Assembly: GCA_003551675.1 (NCBI GenBank)
Contig: PUNG01000009.1
Location: 937-64,936 of the forward strand
Reading direction: 5' to 3'
DNA length: 64,000 bases
Source: Thermoplasmata archaeon
GTDB lineage: Archaea; Thermoplasmatota; Thermoplasmata; Halarchaeoplasmatales; Halarchaeoplasmataceae
The position numbers and the translations under genes were made by a program. Below the pieces are notes generated by a model. The model was not told the origin of the DNA and searched no databases. It saw nothing but the letters and a program-made list of their open reading frames with translations. Below, in pieces: positions 10,757 to 35,276 of this stretch. How positions within the stretch are numbered: the first letter of the stretch is position 1; each line of letters begins with the position of its first letter.

Positions 10757-10887
10757 CGATCTCCCTATAACTTTTTCCCTTGGCCGTTGGATAGATCCTC
10801 TCAGGCGTGTAAGTAAAACAGAGATCCATAGTAAAGAAAACGCTTAAATATTGTTCACACACTGTAATATACAACGGAAGGGAAAAT

Positions 10888-13800
10888 ATGATAGGTTTGA
10901 AGAAGGTCCTATCGCTGTTGGTCGTATCCATTTTAGTCATGGGAGGATTGACTCTTTTTGGTGCGCGGACCGCCGGAGATGAAGAAGGGGACCTCATCGA
11001 TAGGGTCTCCGTTGGAGTAAAGTTAAATTTGGAATGTGGCGTGAGTGACGTTTATGAAGGCGAGCTTGATACGTTCCTGCATCCTATACCCGGGCCCGTT
11101 TACGATGATTTTCCGGAAAAATGGCGCATGGAATTAGGAACATGGGGCGCTGGAACATCTTACTCTAATTTGTTCATCAATCCGTCCCACGAGGGACATG
11201 GAACCCAGGCTATGGAGGACGCGATAGATGCTGGCTGGATAGAAGAACCGGAAGAGATCCAGTGGTTGGCGAACGACGTTGATGGAGAGTGGACCGTCAA
11301 CCCGTTCGCACACAACGATATCAGGTTCGCGATGCAGTATTTGAGCAGGGAAAATATAGCGGAAGAGCTGCTCAGAGGTTATGCAGATCCTAGATACTCG
11401 TTCATGGACGTTTCTTCAGAAGTTTGGCAGGACCATTTTGTTGAAGCCATAGAAGAAGAATACGAAATGTCGCCGGAAGGTAACGAAGAGCTGATGAAAC
11501 AGATGATAGAAGATGCCATGGTAGAGATCAAACAGAACGTTGCCTTCGGAGAGGTAAGGCACGACGGCGAGTATTGGCAGTATAGAGCACCAGAAGAAAA
11601 CTGGCGCGATATAGAGGTGAAACTAATCGGGAGAGTGGAGGATTGGAGGCTCGATCTAGCTTACTACATGGTCGATATCCTACAAGATCTTGGTTTCAAC
11701 GCTTGGGTGGATCCCACCGATTCTGCTACAGCTATCTCGTTAGTGTTTTTTGGTCATCCGGATCCGTACGACGATCTAGCTTACCATATATACACAGGAG
11801 GCTGGATCTCATCTCAAGCGAAGTACTACCAAGAAGCAGGAGCGGCACAGATGTACGCTCCGTGGCACGGTTTCACCCAGACTCACGTTGAAGAGGAGCG
11901 CTGGAACTACGACCAAGAGGGTTACACGGAGAGGGTTCAACGTTTAGATAATATCTCAAAAAGGCTCTTTCAGGGTGAAATCGGATCCGAGGAGGAGTAC
12001 TGGGAGAAAAAGATAGAGGCCACGCAGCTCGGTTTTGAAGAATCGCTAAGGGTATTTCTCCTGACCAAACAGTCGTTATATGTATACAACCCAGATACGC
12101 TACTCAGCACGGTCACAGAGTCGATCAACGGTTACGACACGTACTTCGGTCCCAGGACCATGAGGACCGACGATGGAACTCTTGAGACGGCTGTGTTGAC
12201 AGGAGTTGACAGACCTTACATGGACAACTGGAACAAGTATGGAGGTTCGGCGTATATTTACGGAGAGTATAAAAGAAGACAGATCAGAGAGTACGGTTCT
12301 TGGATGCATCCTCAGACAGGATTGCCCATGGAAGTCAACGTGTACTGGTCCGAAGGTAGAGATACAGACCCATACGAAAGGAGAGGCGACGTAGAGATGG
12401 ATTACGAATGGGTCGATGACGAACTCGTGGAGAACATAGAGATCCCAGAAGATGCCTTGGATTATGTGCCAGGGATTCAGGTAGAGGATGAGTGGGAAGA
12501 GGTTGGAGAGTGGTGGACCCGTGACGAATTGATAGCTGAAGGCTTGATAGAGGACGAGTACGCCGCAGTCAAAGCAACCTTAGACGTGCACGAAGAACAC
12601 GTATGGCACGACGGCACCGACTTCACACTACGGGACGTCATGGCCAACTACGCGAGAGAAAAGCGATTGACCTGTCCATCAAGCGAACCGTATCTATCGT
12701 CATGGGAGAAAAGAAGAGGTCCGTGGTATGATACCATCCATGCTATAGAGTGGGATGAACAGAATGGAACTTACACGGTTTATGGAGATTATACACTTCC
12801 CATAGAAGACAAGCTCGGCAGTTACTATGAGATCTTTCCCGAGGTGCACCCATTGACCTACGAAGGATGGGATCACATGCACGGAGGTACGGAAATATGG
12901 GAGATATCGGATGTGGAGGAAACGTACAACTATGAGGCTGGAGTTGCAGACAACTGGATACATCAGATATCACCAACACCGTGTGAAGATCTGGTAGAAG
13001 TTTTACAGACCATGATAGATGAAGAGTACCTACCGTGTTACCTTGATGAAGACAGAGGCGCTCCTATGCCGGCGAACTTTGCCGAAGTCAAAGCTACTTT
13101 AGAGAGCCTCATAGACTTCATAGAAGAGTACGAACATTCTTACATATCAGTGGGTCCGTTCTACATGGAAGAGTATGACACAAGCAACCAAACCATGGAT
13201 CTAGAAAGATGGGACGATTACGGTTACCCGTTCGAAGGTGAAGAGATAGGGGACATGGAATTTCCATACGGCTACTGGGCGGCTCAGTTCGAGGTGAAGG
13301 AGGTCAGATTAGATTCCATAGACGCTCCCGATCATGTTATGATAGGAGATGACTTCGAAGCGAGCGGGACAGGTCACTACGCACAGTTGTACCCTTTACC
13401 CGACAAAGAGCCGTTGACAGAGGACAATATGGAAGAGTACAGGTTCACACTGAGAGATGAATTCGATGGTGAAATATTGTTGGTGTTGGATGAGGACGAT
13501 ATAACTCTCACCAAAGGTGATACATACAGTACGTTCGAAGCTAAAATACCTACGGACGAGTTGGAATCAGAAGGTCATTACTCGATGCAGTTGGAAGTAC
13601 TCGGCGTTGGTGAATCGTCATTTAAAACGATAAACGCCATGGTTGTGGTGAACCATCCCGATGTAGATCTGAATGTTATCGATTTTTCCATGGACGAAGA
13701 AGTTGAACTCGGGGAAGAGGGTAATATCTGGGCAGAGATAGAGAACTTAGGTGCGGAAGATGATACTGTTAAGATAGCACTCATAGATGAATACGGAGAT

Positions 13801-15723
13801 GAAGAGATCATATACGAAGAAGAGGTACTAGCCCACGATACTATCACCATCGATCATCACCATACCTACGAAGATATGGGTGAGTTTAGTGTAGAGGTCT
13901 GGGACGCTGAAGACCGTTTTGTTGACGACTTTGGCACCGTAACTGTTCTAGAATATGAAATAGAAGTTTTAAAATTTGCAGTAAATCCATGCTCCGGAAC
14001 AGCACCGCTTAGAGTTTTCATCGAGATGTTTGCAGAGAACCACGGAACCACGACAGGAAAGATATCTTTAGAGGTGAACGGCGAAACAATAGAAACATTT
14101 GAAATTTCACCCGAGAGTATGATGTATGAAACCATGGTATATGAGATTGAAGAACCCGGAGATCATACCATCGCGTTCGGAGAAGAAGAACGAGAAGTAA
14201 CTGTTGTGGAGGACTACTTAGAACCCGTTGAATTGGTGGTTCCTGATGAGGTGCACCAAGGAGATACGGAGACCATACAAGTTACGGTAGATAGTCAAGT
14301 AGAGGAAACCACGGCTCATCTATTGGTTGGCGACGAAGAGTACGTAGAAAACATAGAGCGGGAAGGAGAAGTTACTTTTAGCGTTGATCACACATTTGAC
14401 GTACCAGGAGAGATAGATGTCGAGGTGTTAGACGAAGAGGAAACGAGATTGATGTATGATACGGTCACGGTCTTAGCACTGTACGAACTCGCTGTAAACG
14501 TAGAAGGAGAAGGACATGTAGAATGGGAACCAGAAGAAGAAAATTACGTAGAAGGAACCGAAGTGAAATTGACGGCACTACCAGAAGAAGGTTGGCACTT
14601 CATAGAATGGACGGGAGACCATGAGAGTACGGATGAACAGACCACCATAACCATGGACCAGGACTATGAGATAACAGCTCATTTTGAAGAACTCGGGACC
14701 TACGAGCTTACAGTAAACATCGAGGGCGAAGGCACTACAGATCCACCAGAAGGTACTCACATCTACAATGAGGGAGAGGTTGTAACGGTAGAAGCGGTAC
14801 CGGCGGATAACTGGACATTTGTGAATTGGACGGGAGACAAAACAGGTGATGAGACAACCATGAACATAACTATGGATAGCGATAAGGAAATCACGGCACA
14901 CTTTTCGAAAGAGGACCCTATCTTAGAAGAAGAATACATAGGTACGGACAAGGAGTGGTACGAACCTGGAGAGAACGTTACGATAGAAGTGAAAAACGAT
15001 GGTTCGGCCAGTAATATCCCCATGATATATGATTTCGGCATCTATATAGAGAACGTAGAAACCGGTGAAGTGGTGTACGGTCCTCTTGAAGGGATAACAC
15101 AGCCCGCAGTACCGGACTACGGCCGCACGGAGTATATCATATGGGATCAGACGGACCTTGAAGGTGAACAGGTTCCCGAAGGTACCTACAGGGTCAAAGC
15201 GGAGAGGGAATTCGAGCACACCACCGAATTTAACATCTCGGAAGAAAGCCCTCATATAGAATTATCGAACTTGAGAGCCGAACCTCAAGTGGTAAAAGCT
15301 GGAGAGGAAGTAGAAGTAAGAGTGGACGTTACCAACACAGGATATGAGACCGTAGAGTATTCAGTAGAGTTCTATATCTATGGGCCCTGTAGATGGAGTC
15401 TAAATGAATCCGTTTCGGTCACCGTAGAAGGAGGGGAGACCAAAACCGTCTTTTACAATTATACGACTGTAGACAAACCTGGTGAGCATTTTATCAACGT
15501 CATGGAGGATGACGAGATCAAGATATCTACATCGATCGAAGTGGAAGAGGATGAGAGCTTTTTGGACTCTCTGAGGACTAACTGGTGGTTGATGGTAATC
15601 GTTATCGTGATAGTAGCTGTCATATGGATTTATGTGAGCCATAAAAAGATCGAGACTGAAAAAGTGAATAAAAAGGTCCCAGTCCTCCAGAAAAAAGAAA
15701 GCGGTAAAGACGAAAAACAATAA
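10888..15723 (+). CDS. giant acidic cell-surface protein (SBP-family-5-like N-domain, tandem Listeria-Bacteroides/Flg_new repeats, C-terminal TM anchor)
   Basis: The 1611-aa product has an N-terminal signal/TM segment, extreme D/E content, a C-terminal WWLMVIVIVIVAVIWIYV helix and a KK-rich tail. It contains two tandem ~70-aa repeats ending ...W(T/F)V.WTGD...ITAHF. Confidence 0.7.
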   Translation: MIGLKKVLSLLVVSILVMGGLTLFGARTAGDEEGDLIDRVSVGVKLNLECGVSDVYEGELDTFLHPIPGPVYDDFPEKWRMELGTWGAGTSYSNLFINPSHEGHGTQAMEDAIDAGWIEEPEEIQWLANDVDGEWTVNPFAHNDIRFAMQYLSRENIAEELLRGYADPRYSFMDVSSEVWQDHFVEAIEEEYEMSPEGNEELMKQMIEDAMVEIKQNVAFGEVRHDGEYWQYRAPEENWRDIEVKLIGRVEDWRLDLAYYMVDILQDLGFNAWVDPTDSATAISLVFFGHPDPYDDLAYHIYTGGWISSQAKYYQEAGAAQMYAPWHGFTQTHVEEERWNYDQEGYTERVQRLDNISKRLFQGEIGSEEEYWEKKIEATQLGFEESLRVFLLTKQSLYVYNPDTLLSTVTESINGYDTYFGPRTMRTDDGTLETAVLTGVDRPYMDNWNKYGGSAYIYGEYKRRQIREYGSWMHPQTGLPMEVNVYWSEGRDTDPYERRGDVEMDYEWVDDELVENIEIPEDALDYVPGIQVEDEWEEVGEWWTRDELIAEGLIEDEYAAVKATLDVHEEHVWHDGTDFTLRDVMANYAREKRLTCPSSEPYLSSWEKRRGPWYDTIHAIEWDEQNGTYTVYGDYTLPIEDKLGSYYEIFPEVHPLTYEGWDHMHGGTEIWEISDVEETYNYEAGVADNWIHQISPTPCEDLVEVLQTMIDEEYLPCYLDEDRGAPMPANFAEVKATLESLIDFIEEYEHSYISVGPFYMEEYDTSNQTMDLERWDDYGYPFEGEEIGDMEFPYGYWAAQFEVKEVRLDSIDAPDHVMIGDDFEASGTGHYAQLYPLPDKEPLTEDNMEEYRFTLRDEFDGEILLVLDEDDITLTKGDTYSTFEAKIPTDELESEGHYSMQLEVLGVGESSFKTINAMVVVNHPDVDLNVIDFSMDEEVELGEEGNIWAEIENLGAEDDTVKIALIDEYGDEEIIYEEEVLAHDTITIDHHHTYEDMGEFSVEVWDAEDRFVDDFGTVTVLEYEIEVLKFAVNPCSGTAPLRVFIEMFAENHGTTTGKISLEVNGETIETFEISPESMMYETMVYEIEEPGDHTIAFGEEEREVTVVEDYLEPVELVVPDEVHQGDTETIQVTVDSQVEETTAHLLVGDEEYVENIEREGEVTFSVDHTFDVPGEIDVEVLDEEETRLMYDTVTVLALYELAVNVEGEGHVEWEPEEENYVEGTEVKLTALPEEGWHFIEWTGDHESTDEQTTITMDQDYEITAHFEELGTYELTVNIEGEGTTDPPEGTHIYNEGEVVTVEAVPADNWTFVNWTGDKTGDETTMNITMDSDKEITAHFSKEDPILEEEYIGTDKEWYEPGENVTIEVKNDGSASNIPMIYDFGIYIENVETGEVVYGPLEGITQPAVPDYGRTEYIIWDQTDLEGEQVPEGTYRVKAEREFEHTTEFNISEESPHIELSNLRAEPQVVKAGEEVEVRVDVTNTGYETVEYSVEFYIYGPCRWSLNESVSVTVEGGETKTVFYNYTTVDKPGEHFINVMEDDEIKISTSIEVEEDESFLDSLRTNWWLMVIVIVIVAVIWIYVSHKKIETEKVNKKVPVLQKKESGKDEKQ
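14482..14905 (+). repeat. two tandem Flg_new-like protein-coding repeats inside the giant surface gene
   Basis: YELAVNVEGEGHVEW...WHFIEWTGD...YEITAHF is followed by YELTVNIEGEGTTDP...WTFVNWTGD...KEITAHF. Confidence 0.6.
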
Positions 15724-21907: not shown

Positions 21908-22699
21908 TCACAGATTGGAATAGCTTCCTCCACCGTCTACGGGTATAGCGACACCATCGAGGTAACTCGATCTTTTGGAACACAAGAAGGCCACCACGTC
22001 ACCAAGTTCTGAAGGGGAACCGATCCTCTCCAAGGGTATGTCTTCGTTCCAAAAATCTAAACCTTCCTGGTATGAGTCGAATCGGCCTTCTTCAACGCCC
22101 ACGTTTATGAGTTCTCGTATCCTAGCGGTTTCATGGGGGCCCGGCAGTACCGCATTGGCTCTGATCTCAGGACCCAGCTCTTTAGACAATGTTTTCATCA
22201 ATCCGATCACGCTCATGCGGACAGAATTTGAAAGAACCAGACCCTCTATGGATTCTTTGACGCTTATAGAAGTTATATTCACAATGGTCCCTCCATCTCC
22301 CTGCTTTAAGTAGTCTACTGCTTCCATCACGACTCTCACCACGCTCATAACCAGAAGATCGAACGAAAGGTACCAATCATCATCTTTGGTCTCCATAAAA
22401 GTCATACTCGGAGGACCACCGGCGCAGGTGACTAGATGATCTATCCTTCCAAATTCTTCATAAGTTCTTTCCACCATATCCTCTATATCTTCTTTCTTGG
22501 TCAGGTCGCCGGGTTGGCCGATCACTTCACCGGGTCCAAGTCCTTTTAATTCATCTACGGCTTTCTCTAAACGAGTTTCATCTCTTCCGTTTATCATCAC
22601 ATGGACTCCTTCCCGGACCAACGCTTCCGCCGAAGCCTTACCAAGTCCACTGCTGGAAGCAGTGACAAGGGCCGCATTTCCATCTATCTCCAGATCCAT
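21908..22699 (-). CDS. short-chain dehydrogenase/reductase (SDR)
   Basis: It has the TASSSGLG Rossmann motif. The start is moved to the internal ATG, because the track extension runs through the tRNA-Arg. Confidence 0.7.
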   Translation of the reverse strand: MDLEIDGNAALVTASSSGLGKASAEALVREGVHVMINGRDETRLEKAVDELKGLGPGEVIGQPGDLTKKEDIEDMVERTYEEFGRIDHLVTCAGGPPSMTFMETKDDDWYLSFDLLVMSVVRVVMEAVDYLKQGDGGTIVNITSISVKESIEGLVLSNSVRMSVIGLMKTLSKELGPEIRANAVLPGPHETARIRELINVGVEEGRFDSYQEGLDFWNEDIPLERIGSPSELGDVVAFLCSKRSSYLDGVAIPVDGGGSYSNL

Positions 22700-22713
22700 T
22701 TTATTTTCCCTAG

Positions 22714-22787
22714 TGCCCGATCGGGGATTCGAACCCCGGTAAAAGGCTCCGCAAGCCTCTATGATATCCAAACTACATCAATCGGGC
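22714..22787 (-). tRNA. tRNA-Arg (anticodon GCG)
   Basis: The reverse complement reads GCCCGATTGATGTAGTTTGGATATCATAGAGGCTTGCGGAGCCTTTTACCGGGGTTCGAATCCCCGATCGGGCA. It has a TTCGAAT T-loop, a CGGGG/CCCCG T-stem, and an anticodon loop TTGCGGA. Confidence 0.85.
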
Positions 22788-26138: not shown

Positions 26139-27839
26139 ATGGATAATGGGTTGAACGGGGAAAAAAATAAAACAAGTACCGAACTGAAAAAGATCGGAGT
26201 TATAGCCGCTGTTGTTATTTTATTGATATCATTGGGAGCGGTCACATACTTCTTCAGGGATGAAGAAACAAGTGATGGTGGCTCGGACCCTCATGTTTGG
26301 ATGTCATTAAGAAAAGTAGAGAAGATGATAGAACACTTTTCGGATGAGATCAGTGAATTGGATCCAGATAATGCTGATCATTATGAAGCTAATACAGATG
26401 ATTATAGAGATCGATTGAATGAACTTCATCATGAAATCAAAGAGCACCTAGCTCCCTATGAAGGAGAGAGTTTCATGATCTATCATCCCTCTATAGGATA
26501 TTTCGCCGATGACTATGGACTTGAACAGTTAGCTGTGGAGATCGAAGGTAAAGACCCGGGTCCTGGACAAATTCAAGGGTTGATCGATCGTGCAGAGGAG
26601 GAAGAAGTCGCCGTTATCTTCGTTTCACCCCAATTCGACGTGGAGGCAGCTCAAACTATAGCCGATGAAATAGGGGGAAGAGTCGAGACGTTGGATCCCT
26701 TGGCCAAAGATTATCTAGATAATATGGAAGATATCGCCTGGAGTTTGATAGATGCTTTTGAGGAAAGGGAAAAAAGAAGGAACATAGTGTATGGATCAGA
26801 TAATCTGGAATCATCGTCTTCTCAAGATCCTGTTATCAGTGTCGCGGTTACGATACCTCCCCAGGTCGAATGGGTGGAAGAGGTGGGAGGTAATAAAATA
26901 GAACCTATAGTGATGGTGCCGTACGGTGAGGACCCCCACACTTATGAGCCCGAGCCTAGTAGGATGGAGATGTTAGCGCAAGCTGACGCTTATTTCAAAT
27001 TAGGATCGGGTATAGAGTTCGAGGAGCGACATATGAACAGCATCAAAAATCAGAATCCTGATCTGGAGATAATCGACGGTAGCCGGAACATAGAACTCAG
27101 ACATTTCGATCACGATCACGATCATGAATACGAGATCGGTGAATTCGAGATAATCGATAGGGTGCAAGATGAGAAGGTGGCTTACGTGCATGGTGACCAC
27201 TGGCACGGTTCTCTTCCCGAGGTACCTGAAGACGGCCACATATCACTGGGAGCCTACATAGAAGACGAAGATGGTAACGAGATAGAGTTAGGATACGAAT
27301 ACCAACTAGGTGTAGATCATGTTTTAGATGCCGACGAAAGCATAGTTTCATTTGAGGCGCACGGAGATCATGTTCATATATCTGGAGAAAAAGAGGGAAC
27401 GACAAGGGTGGTTTTTCAATTGATCCATGACGAGCATATAGTTTATGAGACGCCTCCCATAAGCGTATTTGTAGGCGATCACGATCACGAAGATGAGATC
27501 GGAGAATTCAAGATAATCGATAGGTCCGAAGATAAAGAAGTGGCTTACGTGCATGGTGACCACTGGCACGGTTCTCTTCCCGAAGTTAATGAAGGCGAAC
27601 ACGTATCACTGGGAGCCTACATAGAGGACCAACACGGTCACGAGATAAAATTGGGAGACGAGTACCAGTTGGGAGTTAGTTTAGCAGAAGGAGCAGAAAA
27701 TATAGTGAGCTTCCAAGAACACGGAGATCACGTACACATCCACGGCGAAGAAGAGGGAAGTACAGAAGTTGTGTTCCAGTTGATCCATGATGACCACGTG
27801 GACTATGAGACGCATCTTATAGATGTAGATGTGGGCTGA
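26139..27839 (+). CDS. ZnuA/TroA-like metal-binding protein, lobe-permuted, with two tandem His-rich domains
   Basis: A TM anchor is followed by C-lobe motifs (DPHVW, YHPSIGYF), then N-lobe motifs (EDPHTYEPEPS), then DHDHDHE and two ~120-aa repeats containing HGDHWHG and HGDHVHI. Confidence 0.65.
   Translation: MDNGLNGEKNKTSTELKKIGVIAAVVILLISLGAVTYFFRDEETSDGGSDPHVWMSLRKVEKMIEHFSDEISELDPDNADHYEANTDDYRDRLNELHHEIKEHLAPYEGESFMIYHPSIGYFADDYGLEQLAVEIEGKDPGPGQIQGLIDRAEEEEVAVIFVSPQFDVEAAQTIADEIGGRVETLDPLAKDYLDNMEDIAWSLIDAFEEREKRRNIVYGSDNLESSSSQDPVISVAVTIPPQVEWVEEVGGNKIEPIVMVPYGEDPHTYEPEPSRMEMLAQADAYFKLGSGIEFEERHMNSIKNQNPDLEIIDGSRNIELRHFDHDHDHEYEIGEFEIIDRVQDEKVAYVHGDHWHGSLPEVPEDGHISLGAYIEDEDGNEIELGYEYQLGVDHVLDADESIVSFEAHGDHVHISGEKEGTTRVVFQLIHDEHIVYETPPISVFVGDHDHEDEIGEFKIIDRSEDKEVAYVHGDHWHGSLPEVNEGEHVSLGAYIEDQHGHEIKLGDEYQLGVSLAEGAENIVSFQEHGDHVHIHGEEEGSTEVVFQLIHDDHVDYETHLIDVDVG
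27108..27836 (+). repeat. tandem duplication (~369 + ~360 nt) encoding His-rich modules
   Basis: About 80% nucleotide identity is visible between 27108-27476 and 27477-27836. Confidence 0.8.
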
Positions 27840-31564: not shown

Positions 31565-33975
31565 ATCTCCACTTTTTCTACCTCTGAGACGCCGTCTACT
31601 TTTTCCACCAAATATTCCACATCAGCGGTGTTGGCGATCTCGTTCTCATGAGAAACTATGATGACTTGGTCCGCTGTGACTTTCTCCATCACATCTTTTA
31701 ATCGGGTGAGCTGTTCTCTGCTGAAGCCCGTGGTGGGTTCGTCTAACACCAAAAGATTACTTTGAAGCCCCAACTCTTTTTTGATCATGGTGTTGAAAGC
31801 CAGTCTGTAAGCCAAGGCCACCGAAGTCCTTTCCCCTCCGCTCAGATCACTGACAGGGGTTTCGTTGTTCTGAACAGTGACGATAGGAGCAAAGTTTTCG
31901 TCCAGCCTCGCATTCACTTCCGGCTCATTCAGTATCTCGTCGAACCACTCTTTGAAGTAGCTGGCAAAATCCTGTCTGATCTGTGCTAATCGATGTTCTT
32001 CTATGGCTTTGATGGTCTCTTTGAATTGGTTGTTCATCCATGAGTTCAGTCTCCTCAATTCCTTGGCTTCTTTCTTACTCTTTTTTTTATTTTTGATCTC
32101 CTTCTTTCTCTCCTCGATCTCGTCTCCGAGTCTGCTCACATCTTCTTTCAGATGTGTCTTCTTCTCTTTTAGCTGGCTTATCTTTGCGATGAGCTTCTCG
32201 TGCCTTTCTTTTATCTTTTCCAAGTCCTTTTTAGAGAATTTTTCTTCCAAGTTTTCCAGTTCTTTTTTGATCTCTCCGAGAGCGTCTTTCTTTTCTTCCA
32301 CCACCTTTTCTTTCTCACCCTTCTTTTTGAGATATTCGCCCTTTTTTTTCAATCGTTCTTTTATCCTGGTGAACTCATCTTTGAATTCTCGGAGTTCTCT
32401 TTCTCTCTTTTTCAGCTCACTGAGATCCTTTTCGTCTATGTCTTTTTCTTTTATATCTTCATTCAAACCCTGGATTTTTTTTTCGAGTTCCTGGATTCTT
32501 TCTTTTAATCCCTCTTTTACTTTCAATTCTTTTTTTAATCTTTTTATCTCTCTTTTCTTGTAGTTCAAGTCCTTTTTTTTCTCCTCCAGGTGATCTATCT
32601 TTTTCTTTAGCTCCTTCAGTTCCTGGTCCATTTCGGCCTTTTTCTCTTCCAGCTCTTCCTTTTTGCTCTCCATCTCCTTTATATCTTCTTCCAACTCCTG
32701 CAACAACTCTTCTAGATGTTCTTCGTCTAGTACCTGCTGGCATTTTGGACATCTTTTTTCCATCTCAAGATCTCTCAGTTCCTCGATTTCTTCTTTTGAC
32801 TCTTTTAGATCATTTTCAACGGATCTTTTATCGGCCTTTATATCGCTGATATCTTCCCTTATCTTCTTCCTTTTTTCCTTTATATCTTCTGATCCTTCGA
32901 CTTTTTTTTTCAACTCCTCCACCCTTTCTTCTGCTCTATCCTTCTCTTTCTTTTTCTCTTCCAACTCTTTTGATCTTTTAATTTTGTTCTTTAACCTTAT
33001 CTCTAGATTTTCCTTTTTACTTTTCAGTTTATTTTTTTCATCTAGTTTTTCTCTAGCCCTTTCCAACTCTTTTTCTGCCTTTACATATTCTTCTTTTTTT
33101 TCCCTCACCATACTCAATTTTTTCTCATCTTTTTCTATCCTCTCCAACTCTTTTTTTGTTTCCTCTAGGCTTTCTTCAGTGGTTCTGATACTATCCTCCA
33201 ATCTTTTCTTTTTGTTTTCAATTTTTCTCTTTTTCTTTTCTAGTTCTTCCAATCTTTCTCTTTTTTCTTGTGTATCCTTTCTTTCTTTTATGCGTTCTTT
33301 GAATTCCTGTGCGACTTCTTTTTTTTCTTCTTTTTTACTCTCGATCTCTTCTTTCTTCTGGTCTAGCCTTTCTTTTTTCTCTTCCATGTCTTCGGCTTTA
33401 GCTTCGAGTTTTCCTATCTCATTCTCTAAACGTCTCTTCACTATACTCACGTTATCGGCGGCCCTTTCGTACTCTTGTATGTTGAATATCTTCCTTATGG
33501 ACTCTAACCGAAGATCTTCGTTCATGGATAGGATACTCTTCATGCGCTCCTGGGGCGTATATATGCTCATATGGAAAGTTTCTACTTTACCTCTAGTGGA
33601 TTCCCTGAGACCCAAGAGGTCTATTATCTTCACTCTCATCTCTTCCCAGGACAGCTCCATCTTTTTTCCCTCGGTTTCCAGATAACATTCCTTGGCCCAG
33701 TCGCTGCTCCTCTTCCTTATGGAACGGTAGGCTAGGAAATCGTTATCCTCTACTTCGAATCTTAACTCGACACTGGCCTTATCCGCACCATGCCTCAGTA
33801 TCTTGTCGTAAAAGTTTTGCTCCGTGGCCCCGAAAAGAACGAATTCTAGGGCGTAAAGGATAGAAGATTTTCCCGAGCCTATATCCCCCTGGAAAAGTAA
33901 AACTCCTTCGTCGAAATCGATATTTTCTTCTTTATAACTCCTTATGTTGTTGATCTTCATCCTGTCGAGTTTCAT
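31561..33975 (-). CDS. rad50: DNA double-strand break repair ATPase Rad50
   Basis: It has Walker A (GDIGSGKSS), a long K/E-rich coiled coil, a CPKC zinc hook, and the signature LSGGERTSVALAYRLAF plus D-loop (LVLDEPT). It overlaps mre11 by 4 nt. Confidence 0.85.
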   Translation of the reverse strand: MKLDRMKINNIRSYKEENIDFDEGVLLFQGDIGSGKSSILYALEFVLFGATEQNFYDKILRHGADKASVELRFEVEDNDFLAYRSIRKRSSDWAKECYLETEGKKMELSWEEMRVKIIDLLGLRESTRGKVETFHMSIYTPQERMKSILSMNEDLRLESIRKIFNIQEYERAADNVSIVKRRLENEIGKLEAKAEDMEEKKERLDQKKEEIESKKEEKKEVAQEFKERIKERKDTQEKRERLEELEKKKRKIENKKKRLEDSIRTTEESLEETKKELERIEKDEKKLSMVREKKEEYVKAEKELERAREKLDEKNKLKSKKENLEIRLKNKIKRSKELEEKKKEKDRAEERVEELKKKVEGSEDIKEKRKKIREDISDIKADKRSVENDLKESKEEIEELRDLEMEKRCPKCQQVLDEEHLEELLQELEEDIKEMESKKEELEEKKAEMDQELKELKKKIDHLEEKKKDLNYKKREIKRLKKELKVKEGLKERIQELEKKIQGLNEDIKEKDIDEKDLSELKKRERELREFKDEFTRIKERLKKKGEYLKKKGEKEKVVEEKKDALGEIKKELENLEEKFSKKDLEKIKERHEKLIAKISQLKEKKTHLKEDVSRLGDEIEERKKEIKNKKKSKKEAKELRRLNSWMNNQFKETIKAIEEHRLAQIRQDFASYFKEWFDEILNEPEVNARLDENFAPIVTVQNNETPVSDLSGGERTSVALAYRLAFNTMIKKELGLQSNLLVLDEPTTGFSREQLTRLKDVMEKVTADQVIIVSHENEIANTADVEYLVEKVDGVSEVEKVEI

Positions 33976-35276
33976 CTTTCTCCTCCGAAATCCACCAAAC
34001 TTATCTGGCCGCCCTTCTTCTCAGCACGCTTTTCTTCGTCACTGGGCTCTTCTTTCTTTTCACGTCGTTTTTCCTCCTTTTCGTGATCATCTCTTTTACG
34101 TATGAGCTCCCATGCTTCTTCCCATATACGCTCCTCGTAATCGTAGTCCGTTTCGTCTTCGTTCTTTTCTATCTTCAGTATGTTGAGCAGGTGGTGACCG
34201 AATTCATGCCCCCAATATTCGTGATCTATATGCTCTTCTAAAAGCCTCCGCTCCATCTTTTCTTCTTCCTCGTCTCTTTCTTTCAACTTCACTCTTTCAA
34301 GTTCTCTACCCTCTAGTTCTCTCCTGTTCAGGAAGACGGTCTGGAAACCCTTTTCTTTTTTCAGCTTTCTTTTCTTCTCGTTGAAATCTATATCCGCGGG
34401 AGTACCTTGAGAAAGGGTACCTTTGACTTTCAGTAGCAGGATATCGCCGTCCATCTTCTTATTATAAAGCTCTTCTAACTTCTCTTCCAGTTCTTCAACA
34501 TTCGATCCTTCTGCATCTATCCTGTGTAGAACTATCCTGGGATCTTCAAAGCTGATATATTCAGGTTCCCAGTCGTCAACGATAAAAAAGCCTCTTTCGT
34601 CTCTTTCAAGGTCTGTGTAAGAAGAGCCGAATGTCGGCCCAGGGTAGTATATCCTGTTCTCATGGTCTTCTATCTTGGCGTGGATGTGACCGCCGGCATA
34701 GTAGTCAAAACCTTCGGGTAGAGAAGAGAGAGGTACGCTCTTTTCTTCGTGTATATCGGCGGGTTTCAACTCCGCTATGGGGGTATGGAAAACAAATATG
34801 CTTCTGCTCTTTTCTTCTCCAGGAGAGAAGTCGATATGTTCAAAGTAACTCACGTCCGCCCTGTTTTTCCTACCACTCAACCCTGCGATGGAGATACCGG
34901 AAGGATCTTCCTGAAGAGCTAATCTATTCTCCTCTTCCAGATAGTTGACCACCTTTTTGAAGACTTCCGCACTCTCCAGCACATCTATGAGTGAAGCCCT
35001 GGCGATGTTGAAGTCGTGGGAGCCGTAAACGGAGTAGATCCTGATGTTTTCTTTTCTAGCTTTCATGAGTATCTGTACGGCTCTATCGACCACCTCTAGA
35101 TCAGGATGCGGGTTGTGAAAAAGGTCTCCCGCGATGACTATGAAATCAACATCTCTTTCGATGCTGATGTCTATGGACTTCTCAAAGGCTTCGAGGTTGT
35201 ACTCTTTGAGTTCTGGATGCCGGCTGAACGCACCCAGATGACAGTCCGCGATATGTGCGAATTTTACCATCGTCAC
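33972..35276 (-). CDS. mre11: DNA double-strand break repair nuclease Mre11 with K/E/R-rich C-terminal tail
   Basis: It has phosphoesterase motifs (HIADCHLG, GDLFH, GHIH), followed by a ~100-aa low-complexity charged tail. Confidence 0.85.
   Translation of the reverse strand: MTMVKFAHIADCHLGAFSRHPELKEYNLEAFEKSIDISIERDVDFIVIAGDLFHNPHPDLEVVDRAVQILMKARKENIRIYSVYGSHDFNIARASLIDVLESAEVFKKVVNYLEEENRLALQEDPSGISIAGLSGRKNRADVSYFEHIDFSPGEEKSRSIFVFHTPIAELKPADIHEEKSVPLSSLPEGFDYYAGGHIHAKIEDHENRIYYPGPTFGSSYTDLERDERGFFIVDDWEPEYISFEDPRIVLHRIDAEGSNVEELEEKLEELYNKKMDGDILLLKVKGTLSQGTPADIDFNEKKRKLKKEKGFQTVFLNRRELEGRELERVKLKERDEEEEKMERRLLEEHIDHEYWGHEFGHHLLNILKIEKNEDETDYDYEERIWEEAWELIRKRDDHEKEEKRREKKEEPSDEEKRAEKKGGQISLVDFGGER

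Follow-up and report, generated by a model that had tools for sequence, protein, structure and literature searches.

In bacteria, the cluster-C substrate-binding proteins (SBPs) of ATP-binding cassette (ABC) importers, such as OppA, DppA, AppA and NikA (Pfam SBP_bac_5), have a core of about 500 amino acids (aa) in the canonical segment order and are periplasmic or lipid-anchored. Multiple OppA paralogues may serve one permease and be encoded away from it. In archaea, the OppA proteins of Aeropyrum pernix and Sulfolobus solfataricus have been termed a 'novel archaeal OppA subfamily'; they are large and carry a signal of the signal peptidase I (SPase-I) type, a Ser/Thr-rich glycosylated linker and, behind it, a C-terminal transmembrane anchor (PMC3387779, citing Gogliettino 2010 and Balestrieri 2011). 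The present analysis concerns the gene at positions 10888..15723 (+) in a stretch of 64,000 nucleotides (nt), termed the window here, from a Thermoplasmata archaeon (GenBank assembly GCA_003551675.1, contig PUNG01000009.1, positions 937 to 64,936). Its 1611-aa product is an SBP of family 5, or cluster C, by sequence and fold.

The closest solved relative of the window protein is OppA of Thermococcus kodakarensis (Protein Data Bank (PDB) entry 7FI3; 732 aa, with an endogenous pentapeptide), both by sequence (family profile, E 1.2e-64 overall) and by fold (Foldseek E 5.9e-17); no descriptive paper on 7FI3 turned up in the literature search. Both proteins have an enlarged archaeal cluster-C core and conserved motifs such as NPFA..RFA.QY and GRVEDxRxD. 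However, 7FI3 has the canonical order, whereas the window protein runs from the equivalent of residue ~322 to that of residue ~312, and the crystallised 7FI3 chain is without the beta-sandwich stalk of the window protein. With the bacterial proteins, the window protein has the fold class in common, and most members of its family are encoded by the first gene of an oppBCDF operon; unlike them, it has a permuted core of about 755 aa, is mounted on a stalk with a C-terminal helix, and has no adjacent transporter. It resembles the crenarchaeal OppAs in the SPase-I-type signal, the C-terminal anchor and the large size, but has eight folded domains in place of their glycosylated linker (PMC3387779). 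The departures from the norm of SBP family 5 lie in segment order and, for the window copy, in operon linkage. The permutation and the stalk-mounted architecture are unexpected; the basic function, substrate binding for an ABC importer, is ordinary.

A circularly permuted binding core

Pfam SBP_bac_5 (PF00496) matches aa 132-309 of the window protein (score 36.9 bits, cut-off 32.4, E 3.1e-9), and BLAST against 33 homologues outlines a conserved block at aa ~5-800/900; the solute-binding core spans aa 30-785, about 755 aa. An earlier reading of this DNA (the original prediction) had recognised the SBP-family-5 flavour from a peptide at aa 245-275, which lies inside the Pfam stretch, and had placed it in the first ~500 aa; the family assignment holds, but the domain is longer. 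A phmmer search of the PDB found one relative, 7FI3, with its two matched stretches in reversed order, and the sequence matches detectable in the PDB were limited to 7FI3 and a marginal one, 8EFZ. The AlphaFold2 (AF2) model of aa 30-910 (predicted local distance difference test score (pLDDT) 88.6, predicted template-modelling score (pTM) 0.83) has the bilobed alpha/beta fold with the extra cluster-C domain. The top 50 Foldseek matches in the PDB are all cluster-C binding proteins, including 7FI3 OppA, AppA, NikA, YntA and chitin-binding SBPs, each aligned over about 400 columns, roughly half of the length, with target-normalised template-modelling scores (TM-scores) of 0.36-0.46; such a half-length overlap is to be expected when a sequential aligner is run on a permutant.

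The core is a natural circular permutant of the Opp/Dpp-type binding proteins, a property that the original prediction did not mention. Family-profile positions 38-441 align with 7FI3 residues 322-721 (E 4.7e-41), and positions 445-476 and 522-790 align with residues 4-36 and 58-312, respectively (E 4.6e-21). SBP_bac_5 is reversed in the same way, with model positions 209-349 at aa 132-309 and model positions 26-60 at aa 570-604, and in relatives the N-terminal model positions of NCBIfam Opp4A/Opp5A match the C-terminal part of the core, at sub-threshold scores. In P0125, a natural protein of canonical order, residues 350-749 fall on family columns 41-431 (hhalign). When the window sequence was re-ordered in silico (aa 429-783, then aa 30-428), it matched 7FI3 in one collinear stretch (142-652 against 104-586; 88 against 79 bits) and SBP_bac_5 in one stretch crossing the artificial junction (model 87-349; 45.6 against 39.3 bits). 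The two parts of the core are as follows.

10996..12171 (+): binding-core segment A, aa 37-428 (7FI3 residues 322-721, Pfam, hhalign against P0125, AF2)
12172..13242 (+): binding-core segment B, aa 429-785 (7FI3 residues 4-36 and 58-312, Pfam, re-ordering test)

Segment A corresponds to the C-terminal portion of a canonical cluster-C protein, with the end of domain I, domain III and the C-terminal return, and segment B to the N-terminal portion, with the N-terminus of domain I and domain II; the canonical I-II-I-III-I order is not followed. The old C-terminus is joined to the old N-terminus at about aa 428/429, in GYDTYFGPRTMRTDDG directly followed by TLE, which is among the most conserved stretches of the family. 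The break falls at 7FI3 residues ~312/322, about 80 residues ahead of the crossing into domain III, so that both hinge crossings are kept, with the new termini on lobe 1. The idea that the permutation leaves a single hinge was rejected on this ground. Ancient pseudo-symmetry between the lobes was likewise rejected as a cause of the out-of-order matches, for which E-values of 1e-21 to 1e-41 are too strong.

A profile search of 1.84 billion representatives returned 1421 proteins at E<=1e-3, of which 306 reached E<=1e-30, and the best 150 matches are nearly all collinear with the query. Segment order was determined in 213 retrieved relatives with one hidden Markov model for aa 30-428 (segment A) and another for aa 429-785 (segment B): A precedes B, the permuted order, in 198 of them, and B precedes A, the canonical order as in 7FI3, in six. 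Members carry annotations such as 'ABC transporter substrate-binding protein' and 'peptide/nickel transport system substrate-binding protein', and come from metagenome-assembled genomes (MAGs) of Thermoplasmata, Thermoprotei, Nitrosocaldaceae, Bathyarchaeia and Baldrarchaeia; bacterial members (~30% identity) come from halophilic MAGs labelled Bipolaricaulota or 'Thermotogae'. A homology search from the Thermoprotei member P0151 returned MAG proteins only and no characterised protein. For a natural permutant of the Opp/Dpp class, neither a report nor a Pfam or NCBIfam model nor a solved structure was found, within a literature coverage that was incomplete and did not take in the primary papers on archaeal OppA; what turned up on natural SBP permutation was limited to engineered biosensors and to fold-evolution studies of other periplasmic binding protein classes.

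Gene, membrane anchor and stalk

The 1611-aa open reading frame (ORF) starts with ATG and is the longest of its neighbourhood, in line with its earlier description as the largest gene of the window. The original prediction had itself raised the possibility of a chimeric mis-assembly of shorter genes. Such an artefact, or a gene fusion, is ruled out, and its probability is practically nil: no point in its support was found, the full-length protein occurs on three separately assembled contigs (68.8, 70.4 and 75.2 kb; identity 99.8-100%), called at 1611 or 1601 aa, homologues from other MAGs align collinearly through the core-stalk junction (BLAST, aa 5-1345 and aa 5-1428), and GC content is uniform along the ORF (0.44-0.47). 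Of the copies, P0036 is exactly the window protein and P0001 (GCA_003553425.1) has three residue differences.

The differences in P0001 are D182A, V244G and W326G (window positions 11431, 11617 and 11863; codons 182, 244 and 326). W326 is a nearly invariant position of the family (W297 in alignment A1), and its replacement by Gly stems from an error in assembly or sequencing or else marks a population variant with a damaging effect.

Outside the core, the following features are recognised.

10844..10851 (+): TATA-box-like TTAAATAT, 37-44 nt 5' of the ATG; putative archaeal promoter, read from the sequence
10876-10882 (+): GGAAGGG, Shine-Dalgarno-like element; putative ribosome-binding site, likewise read from the sequence
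10888..10974 (+): N-terminal signal-like segment, aa 1-29 (hydropathy), with a KK n-region and a hydrophobic core, ending in GARTA before G
13291..13608 (+): first beta-sandwich domain (D1), aa 802-907; all-beta in both AF2 models (pLDDT ~85-95) and family-wide
13609..14475 (+): three diverged CARDB/Ig-like beta-sandwich domains (D2-D4), aa 908-1196; all-beta in AF2 (pLDDT ~87-95), Foldseek
14476..14925 (+): two tandem Flg_new_2 domains (divergent InlB B-repeat, Listeria-Bacteroides repeat), aa 1197-1346; PF18998, TIGR02543
14926..15546 (+): two predicted beta-sandwiches, D7 (aa 1347-1455) and the CARDB-like D8 (aa 1456-1553); CARDB score, AF2 pLDDT <50
15580..15639 (+): single C-terminal transmembrane helix NWWLMVIVIVIVAVIWIYVS, aa 1565-1584 (hydropathy)
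15640..15723 (+): 27-aa lysine-rich tail (HKKIETEKVNKKVPVLQKKESGKDEKQ) and stop codon

The putative promoter and ribosome-binding site lie in a 131-nt divergent intergenic region common to the XPD helicase gene. The product is hyper-acidic, as had been stated (pI 4.07; D+E 23.3%, K+R 6.0%), and has only two hydrophobic segments by hydropathy, aa 1-29 and aa 1565-1584, in agreement with the N-terminal signal or transmembrane segment and the single C-terminal helix with a KK-rich tail of the original prediction. The signal-like segment is conserved in 32 relatives (MKWKKILS..IVSVLV.GGL.V...A-x-A, then Q); that of the window protein contains no twin-arginine motif. The lipobox of lipoprotein-anchored binding proteins is absent, as aa 1-49 contain no Cys and the A-x-A-type end is family-wide.

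The lysine-rich tail after the helix begins with HKKIETEKVNKK and is presumed to be cytoplasmic by the positive-inside rule. The C-terminus of the window protein (RTNWWLMVIVIVIVAVIWIYVSHKK) is without the PGF motif of PGF-CTERM/archaeosortase substrates, and an NCBIfam scan of its last 120 aa returned no sorting-signal model. By contrast, most relatives end, like archaeosortase substrates, in PGFT, a helix and KK (YYKK); on these relatives, NCBIfam returned no PGF-CTERM model, and Heimdall-CTERM and Loki-CTERM at sub-threshold level only. A plain helix with a longer basic tail, without PGFT, is found in the window protein and P0005. The earlier statement that no PGF-CTERM is obvious is therefore correct for the window protein, but the PGF-type tail of most relatives had been missed.

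The C-terminal half is modelled as a stalk of about eight beta-sandwich domains. AF2 predicts a confident, purely beta string for aa 802-1341 (pLDDT about 85-95), comprising D1, three CARDB-like domains and two Flg_new_2 domains, and BLAST collinearity with relatives reaches aa ~900, covering D1. Flg_new_2 (PF18998) matches two stretches with a score of 99.6 bits (cut-off 23.6, E 9.6e-29); the matched region begins at aa 1199 (nt 14482), precisely where the original prediction had set the start of two tandem Flg_new repeats (~14482-14905). TIGR02543 (List_Bact_rpt, NCBIfam) scores 30.9 bits against 20.95, and the two copies share 46% identity over 70 aa (E 1.7e-21). Of the internal near-repeats that had been noted in this beta-rich region, the Flg_new_2 pair is thus genuine; the others are strongly diverged sandwich domains, the best pair being D2 and D4 (27% identical, E 5e-6). 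The CARDB (PF07705) assignment is borderline, at 18.5 bits with the whole protein and 23.8 bits with the isolated fragment aa 1340-1561 (cut-off 22.7), and the low pLDDT of D7 and D8 reflects the fact that few homologues carry them. Foldseek with the stalk returned generic tandem Ig/MG arrays only, at very low TM-scores throughout: hydin, complement, alpha-2-macroglobulin and the Haloferax S-layer protein 7PTP. Homologues range from 888 to 2023 aa, and to about 3000 aa among the representatives, with a freely variable stalk composition. If extended, the stalk of the window protein would measure roughly 25-30 nm. Pfam places both an SBP domain above cut-off and two adhesin-type Flg_new_2 domains in this protein, and the earlier picture of a membrane-anchored surface protein that joins them to other beta-sandwich domains is sustained.

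Transporter-linked relatives and orphan copies

Linkage to genes for OppB/C and OppD/F is seen in most relatives and is missing at the window gene, which lies between a divergent XPD helicase gene and genes for a metallo-beta-lactamase (MBL) hydrolase, Sua5, MetAP, PolX and LigA. Genes oppB, oppC, oppD and oppF and two conserved small genes lie directly 3' of those for P0012, P0004 and P0027 and at ~17 further loci, and in total at least 20 loci, archaeal and bacterial, are operon-linked. The primary members of the family serve an OppBCDF importer as its binding subunits. Upstream of the opp loci of halophilic Thermoplasmatota lie genes for a 1700-1870-aa S8 peptidase and a beta-propeller protein.

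In a neighbour-joining tree of the core, the window protein clusters with P0005, P0007, P0009, P0011, P0013 and P0014. The clade mates with readable contigs (P0011, P0013 and P0014) are all orphans amid housekeeping genes, and P0014 is also near an XPD helicase gene. Three MAGs each contain one operon-linked copy together with an orphan paralogue or two. The window gene arose by duplication and stands as a monocistronic orphan, a status in relation to its transporter-linked paralogues that the original prediction had not considered. In 15 operon-linked members, 80 positions show at least 90% conservation; the window protein keeps 76 of these, so its binding core is under the same constraints as in the operon-linked copies, and its function has apparently been preserved.

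At the locus of P0014, a likely positional orthologue (L037), a gene for a 419-aa CARDB/Big_7 protein lies 5' with a 4-nt overlap (L037:8745-10004). A gene for a PAS/GAF histidine-kinase response-regulator hybrid lies 3' on the opposite strand (L037:12760-15069), and IS605 OrfB/TnpB is nearby.

The operon-linked loci have further features. A conserved cluster (L002:2771-21773; also L004, L009, L015 and L021) encodes an S8 peptidase, a beta-propeller protein (PQQ_2-like), the permuted SBP, OppB, OppC, OppD, OppF and two small proteins that have no Pfam matches. The OppC proteins of operon-linked relatives are giant, at 788-1034 aa, compared with a usual length of about 300 aa (genes at L002:15809-18205, L004:13446-15812 and L005:16470-19517). 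In these, OppC_N with the first transmembrane helix (TM1) occupies aa ~14-68, and the BPD_transp_1 core does not begin before aa ~609 or ~825; the insertion of about 540-780 aa between TM1 and the permease core gives weak PKD signals and is presumably extracellular. At L005, two paralogues, P0028 (2807-8308, 1833 aa) and P0027 (10001-15178, 1725 aa), are encoded upstream of one oppBCDF set and are separated by the gene of a helix-turn-helix regulator; their C-termini have long acidic EEEDLFEEE-type repeats and no PGF tail.

In bacterial loci from hypersaline sources (L025, L026, L029, L030 and L032-L036; Bipolaricaulota or 'Thermotogae' labels; Great Salt Lake and other brines), the gene for the permuted SBP is followed by oppBCDF. 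These bacterial SBPs have ~30% identity, are about 865 aa long and have no stalk, and the OppB and OppD encoded with them are 56-68% identical to the archaeal ones. These identities suggest that the whole opp operon was transferred between domains.

Elsewhere in the window, tRNA-Arg(GCG) at 22713-22787 (-) overlaps the 5' end of a 287-aa short-chain dehydrogenase/reductase (SDR) ORF with a TTG start (21908..22771, -), so that the true SDR start must be sought further downstream. The lowest GC content of the window, 0.381, is at 32001-34000, in a minus-strand gene for a Rad50-like SMC ATPase, with strongly negative GC and AT skews.

Proposed function and its alternatives

The window protein is probably an accessory, tethered and permuted oligopeptide-binding protein that was duplicated from the operon and feeds an Opp importer encoded elsewhere. 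A Sec-type signal would export it as a type-I-anchored SBP of the Opp/Dpp class. The chain of the core passes from the end of domain I through domain III and the fused old termini at ~aa 428/429 to domains I and II, and the new C-terminus of the core leads into the stalk (D1, three CARDB-like domains, two Flg_new_2 domains and two more), the membrane helix and the basic tail. The head would close on oligopeptides freed in brine or sediment, and the flexible tether would hand them to an Opp permease whose genes lie elsewhere in the genome. Like the additional OppA paralogues of bacteria, the orphan copy may broaden or boost the capture of peptides; the three related MAGs with an operon copy and one or two orphans resemble bacteria with supernumerary OppAs, and by analogy a permease might be shared here also. 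A peptide ligand is likely because the nearest solved homologue is peptide-bound and the paralogues adjoin a surface protease; we infer this ligand class, as we do the partner permease, signal-peptide cleavage and the stalk geometry, whereas domain identities, the permutation, the linkage of the family to transporters and the orphan setting are demonstrated. Of the roles that had been proposed (S-layer, adhesin or nutrient capture), nutrient capture is the best supported, as relatives lead oppBCDF operons.

Several points weigh against this proposal. The 64-kb window contains no Opp permease or ATPase genes, as judged by tblastn with the Opp proteins of locus L002, which gave weak ATPase matches at the Znu locus only, and by Pfam on 20 ORFs, and the partner permease is assumed. 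Four of the 80 conserved positions depart from the operon-linked consensus. AF2 confidence is low over aa 1342-1560, the last two stalk domains, and a stalk of 25-30 nm is hard to square with simple docking on a membrane permease. In three dimensions, the permutation may also bear on where the stalk leaves its lobe relative to the docking face. As to a peptide ligand for the window paralogue, cluster-C proteins also bind oligosaccharides, nickel chelates and opines.

Some of these points would also fit a surface protein that works independently of a transporter, in which the orphan has been co-opted as an adhesin, receptor or S-layer-like component and the head recognises a surface or polymer. 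The gene is monocistronic and sits amid housekeeping genes without a permease in its vicinity; its whole sub-clade consists of orphans, and the stalk seems too long for docking on a permease. Flg_new_2 is typical of surface or adhesion proteins, and the window protein shares with the InlB B-repeat/Flg_new_2 surface proteins two bona fide domains of this type (99.6 bits); here, however, these are modules in the spacer stalk of an SBP and nothing points to adhesion. Similarly, a long array of Ig-like domains with a C-terminal hydrophobic anchor is the architecture of archaeal S-layer glycoproteins, and that of Haloferax volcanii (7PTP) is matched by Foldseek (E 7.8e-10); but nothing points to lattice formation by the window protein, and a TM-score of 0.15 is no more than the generic likeness of tandem beta-sandwich arrays. 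As the core is conserved like the transporter-linked copies, and orphan binding proteins that share a permease are common in Opp systems, a transporter-independent role is considered unlikely.

Alternatively, a tethered binding protein of an ABC importer might have a non-peptide ligand, such as an oligosaccharide or a metal chelate. Foldseek matches to SBPs for chitin oligosaccharides, mannooligosaccharides, nickel and staphylopine score like AppA and OppA, a change of specificity often accompanies duplication of paralogues, and the archaeal and Thermotoga 'Opp-class' sugar transporters provide a precedent. Carbohydrate degradation has been reported in genome analyses of the order (PMC11332174). 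However, the nearest solved sequence relative is a peptide-bound OppA (7FI3), a giant S8 protease adjoins the operon-linked paralogues, and no glycoside hydrolase genes flank the window gene; a non-peptide ligand is therefore quite unlikely.

The original prediction also saw in this protein a possible host-contact protein of an episymbiotic, nanohaloarchaeon-like organism. What speaks for it is overall appearance alone, that of a giant acidic surface protein carrying adhesin-type repeats, and the reading is highly improbable. The isoleucyl-tRNA synthetase of the window is 85% identical to that of Ca. Natronoplasma, 70% to that of Ca. Saliniplasma and 55% to that of Aciduliprofundum, and is close to those of other Thermoplasmatota, indicating that the source organism belongs to Thermoplasmatota and is Natronoplasma-like; without a nanohaloarchaeon-like organism, the host-contact idea loses its premise. 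Moreover, all close relatives of the protein are found in Thermoplasmata/Thermoplasmatota MAGs, save for one MAG with the label Aenigmatarchaeota and one Nealsonbacteria-binned contig, and none is labelled Nanohaloarchaeota. The presence of acyl-CoA carboxylase subunits, an H+-pyrophosphatase and full DNA-repair functions points the same way, although it is not decisive; the archaeal housekeeping genes of the window include those for topoisomerase VI, Rad50/Mre11, XPD, PolX and the H+-pyrophosphatase. The assembly belongs to a MAG series from soda-lake sediment (contig names with T1Sed10 and SL_8KL), and the synthetase identities place the organism in a halo(alkali)philic order of Thermoplasmatota known from MAGs (PMC11332174; PMC11287216).

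The extreme acidity had been taken to fit a salt-in halophile, and salt-in has been proposed for the order (PMC11332174). However, acidity is not diagnostic here: the two extracellular binding proteins of the window (the protein under study and ZnuA) have K+R of 6% and D+E of 23-24%, whereas cytoplasmic window proteins have K+R of 10-17% (Rad50 25%) and pI values of 4.5 to 9.6. The acidity of the window protein therefore reflects exposure to brine and is in itself no proof of a salt-in cytoplasm. The ZnuA-type metal-binding protein (26139-27839, +) is itself unusually long, at 566 aa, and is matched by Pfam in two stretches (D+E 23.9%, K+R 6.0%); its copy in another assembly is called at 454 aa.

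A more speculative and rather improbable extension of the proposal is a hitherto undescribed 'elevated' ABC importer, in which the permutation, instead of being neutral, shifts the exit of the chain to suit a head borne on a rigid stalk of several domains. This idea arises because the operon-linked OppC has a 540-780-aa insertion, which hints that the permease side is extended as well. Capture, and possibly hand-over, would then take place tens of nm above the membrane, and the orphans would be free-standing antennae or transporter-independent receptors.

The window protein is currently labelled hypothetical or 'InlB B-repeat-containing protein', for which ABC-transporter substrate-binding protein is the fitting label. 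The permuted family, with at least 198 members and 306 clusters at E<=1e-30, extends over Thermoplasmatota, Thermoprotei, Bathyarchaeia, Asgard archaea and halophilic Bipolaricaulota. SBPs rank with the best-studied folds, serve as models for fold evolution and as biosensor scaffolds, and have been permuted by design in engineering; as both gene orders are extant among detectable relatives, this family offers a clean case for the origin and effect of a permutation. Stalk-borne heads together with giant OppC ectodomains raise the question of how cargo is delivered by an SBP held far from the membrane. In ecological terms, the findings point to the scavenging of proteins and peptides, by a surface S8 protease and several tethered peptide binders, as a major trait of the uncultured halo(alkali)philic Thermoplasmatota.

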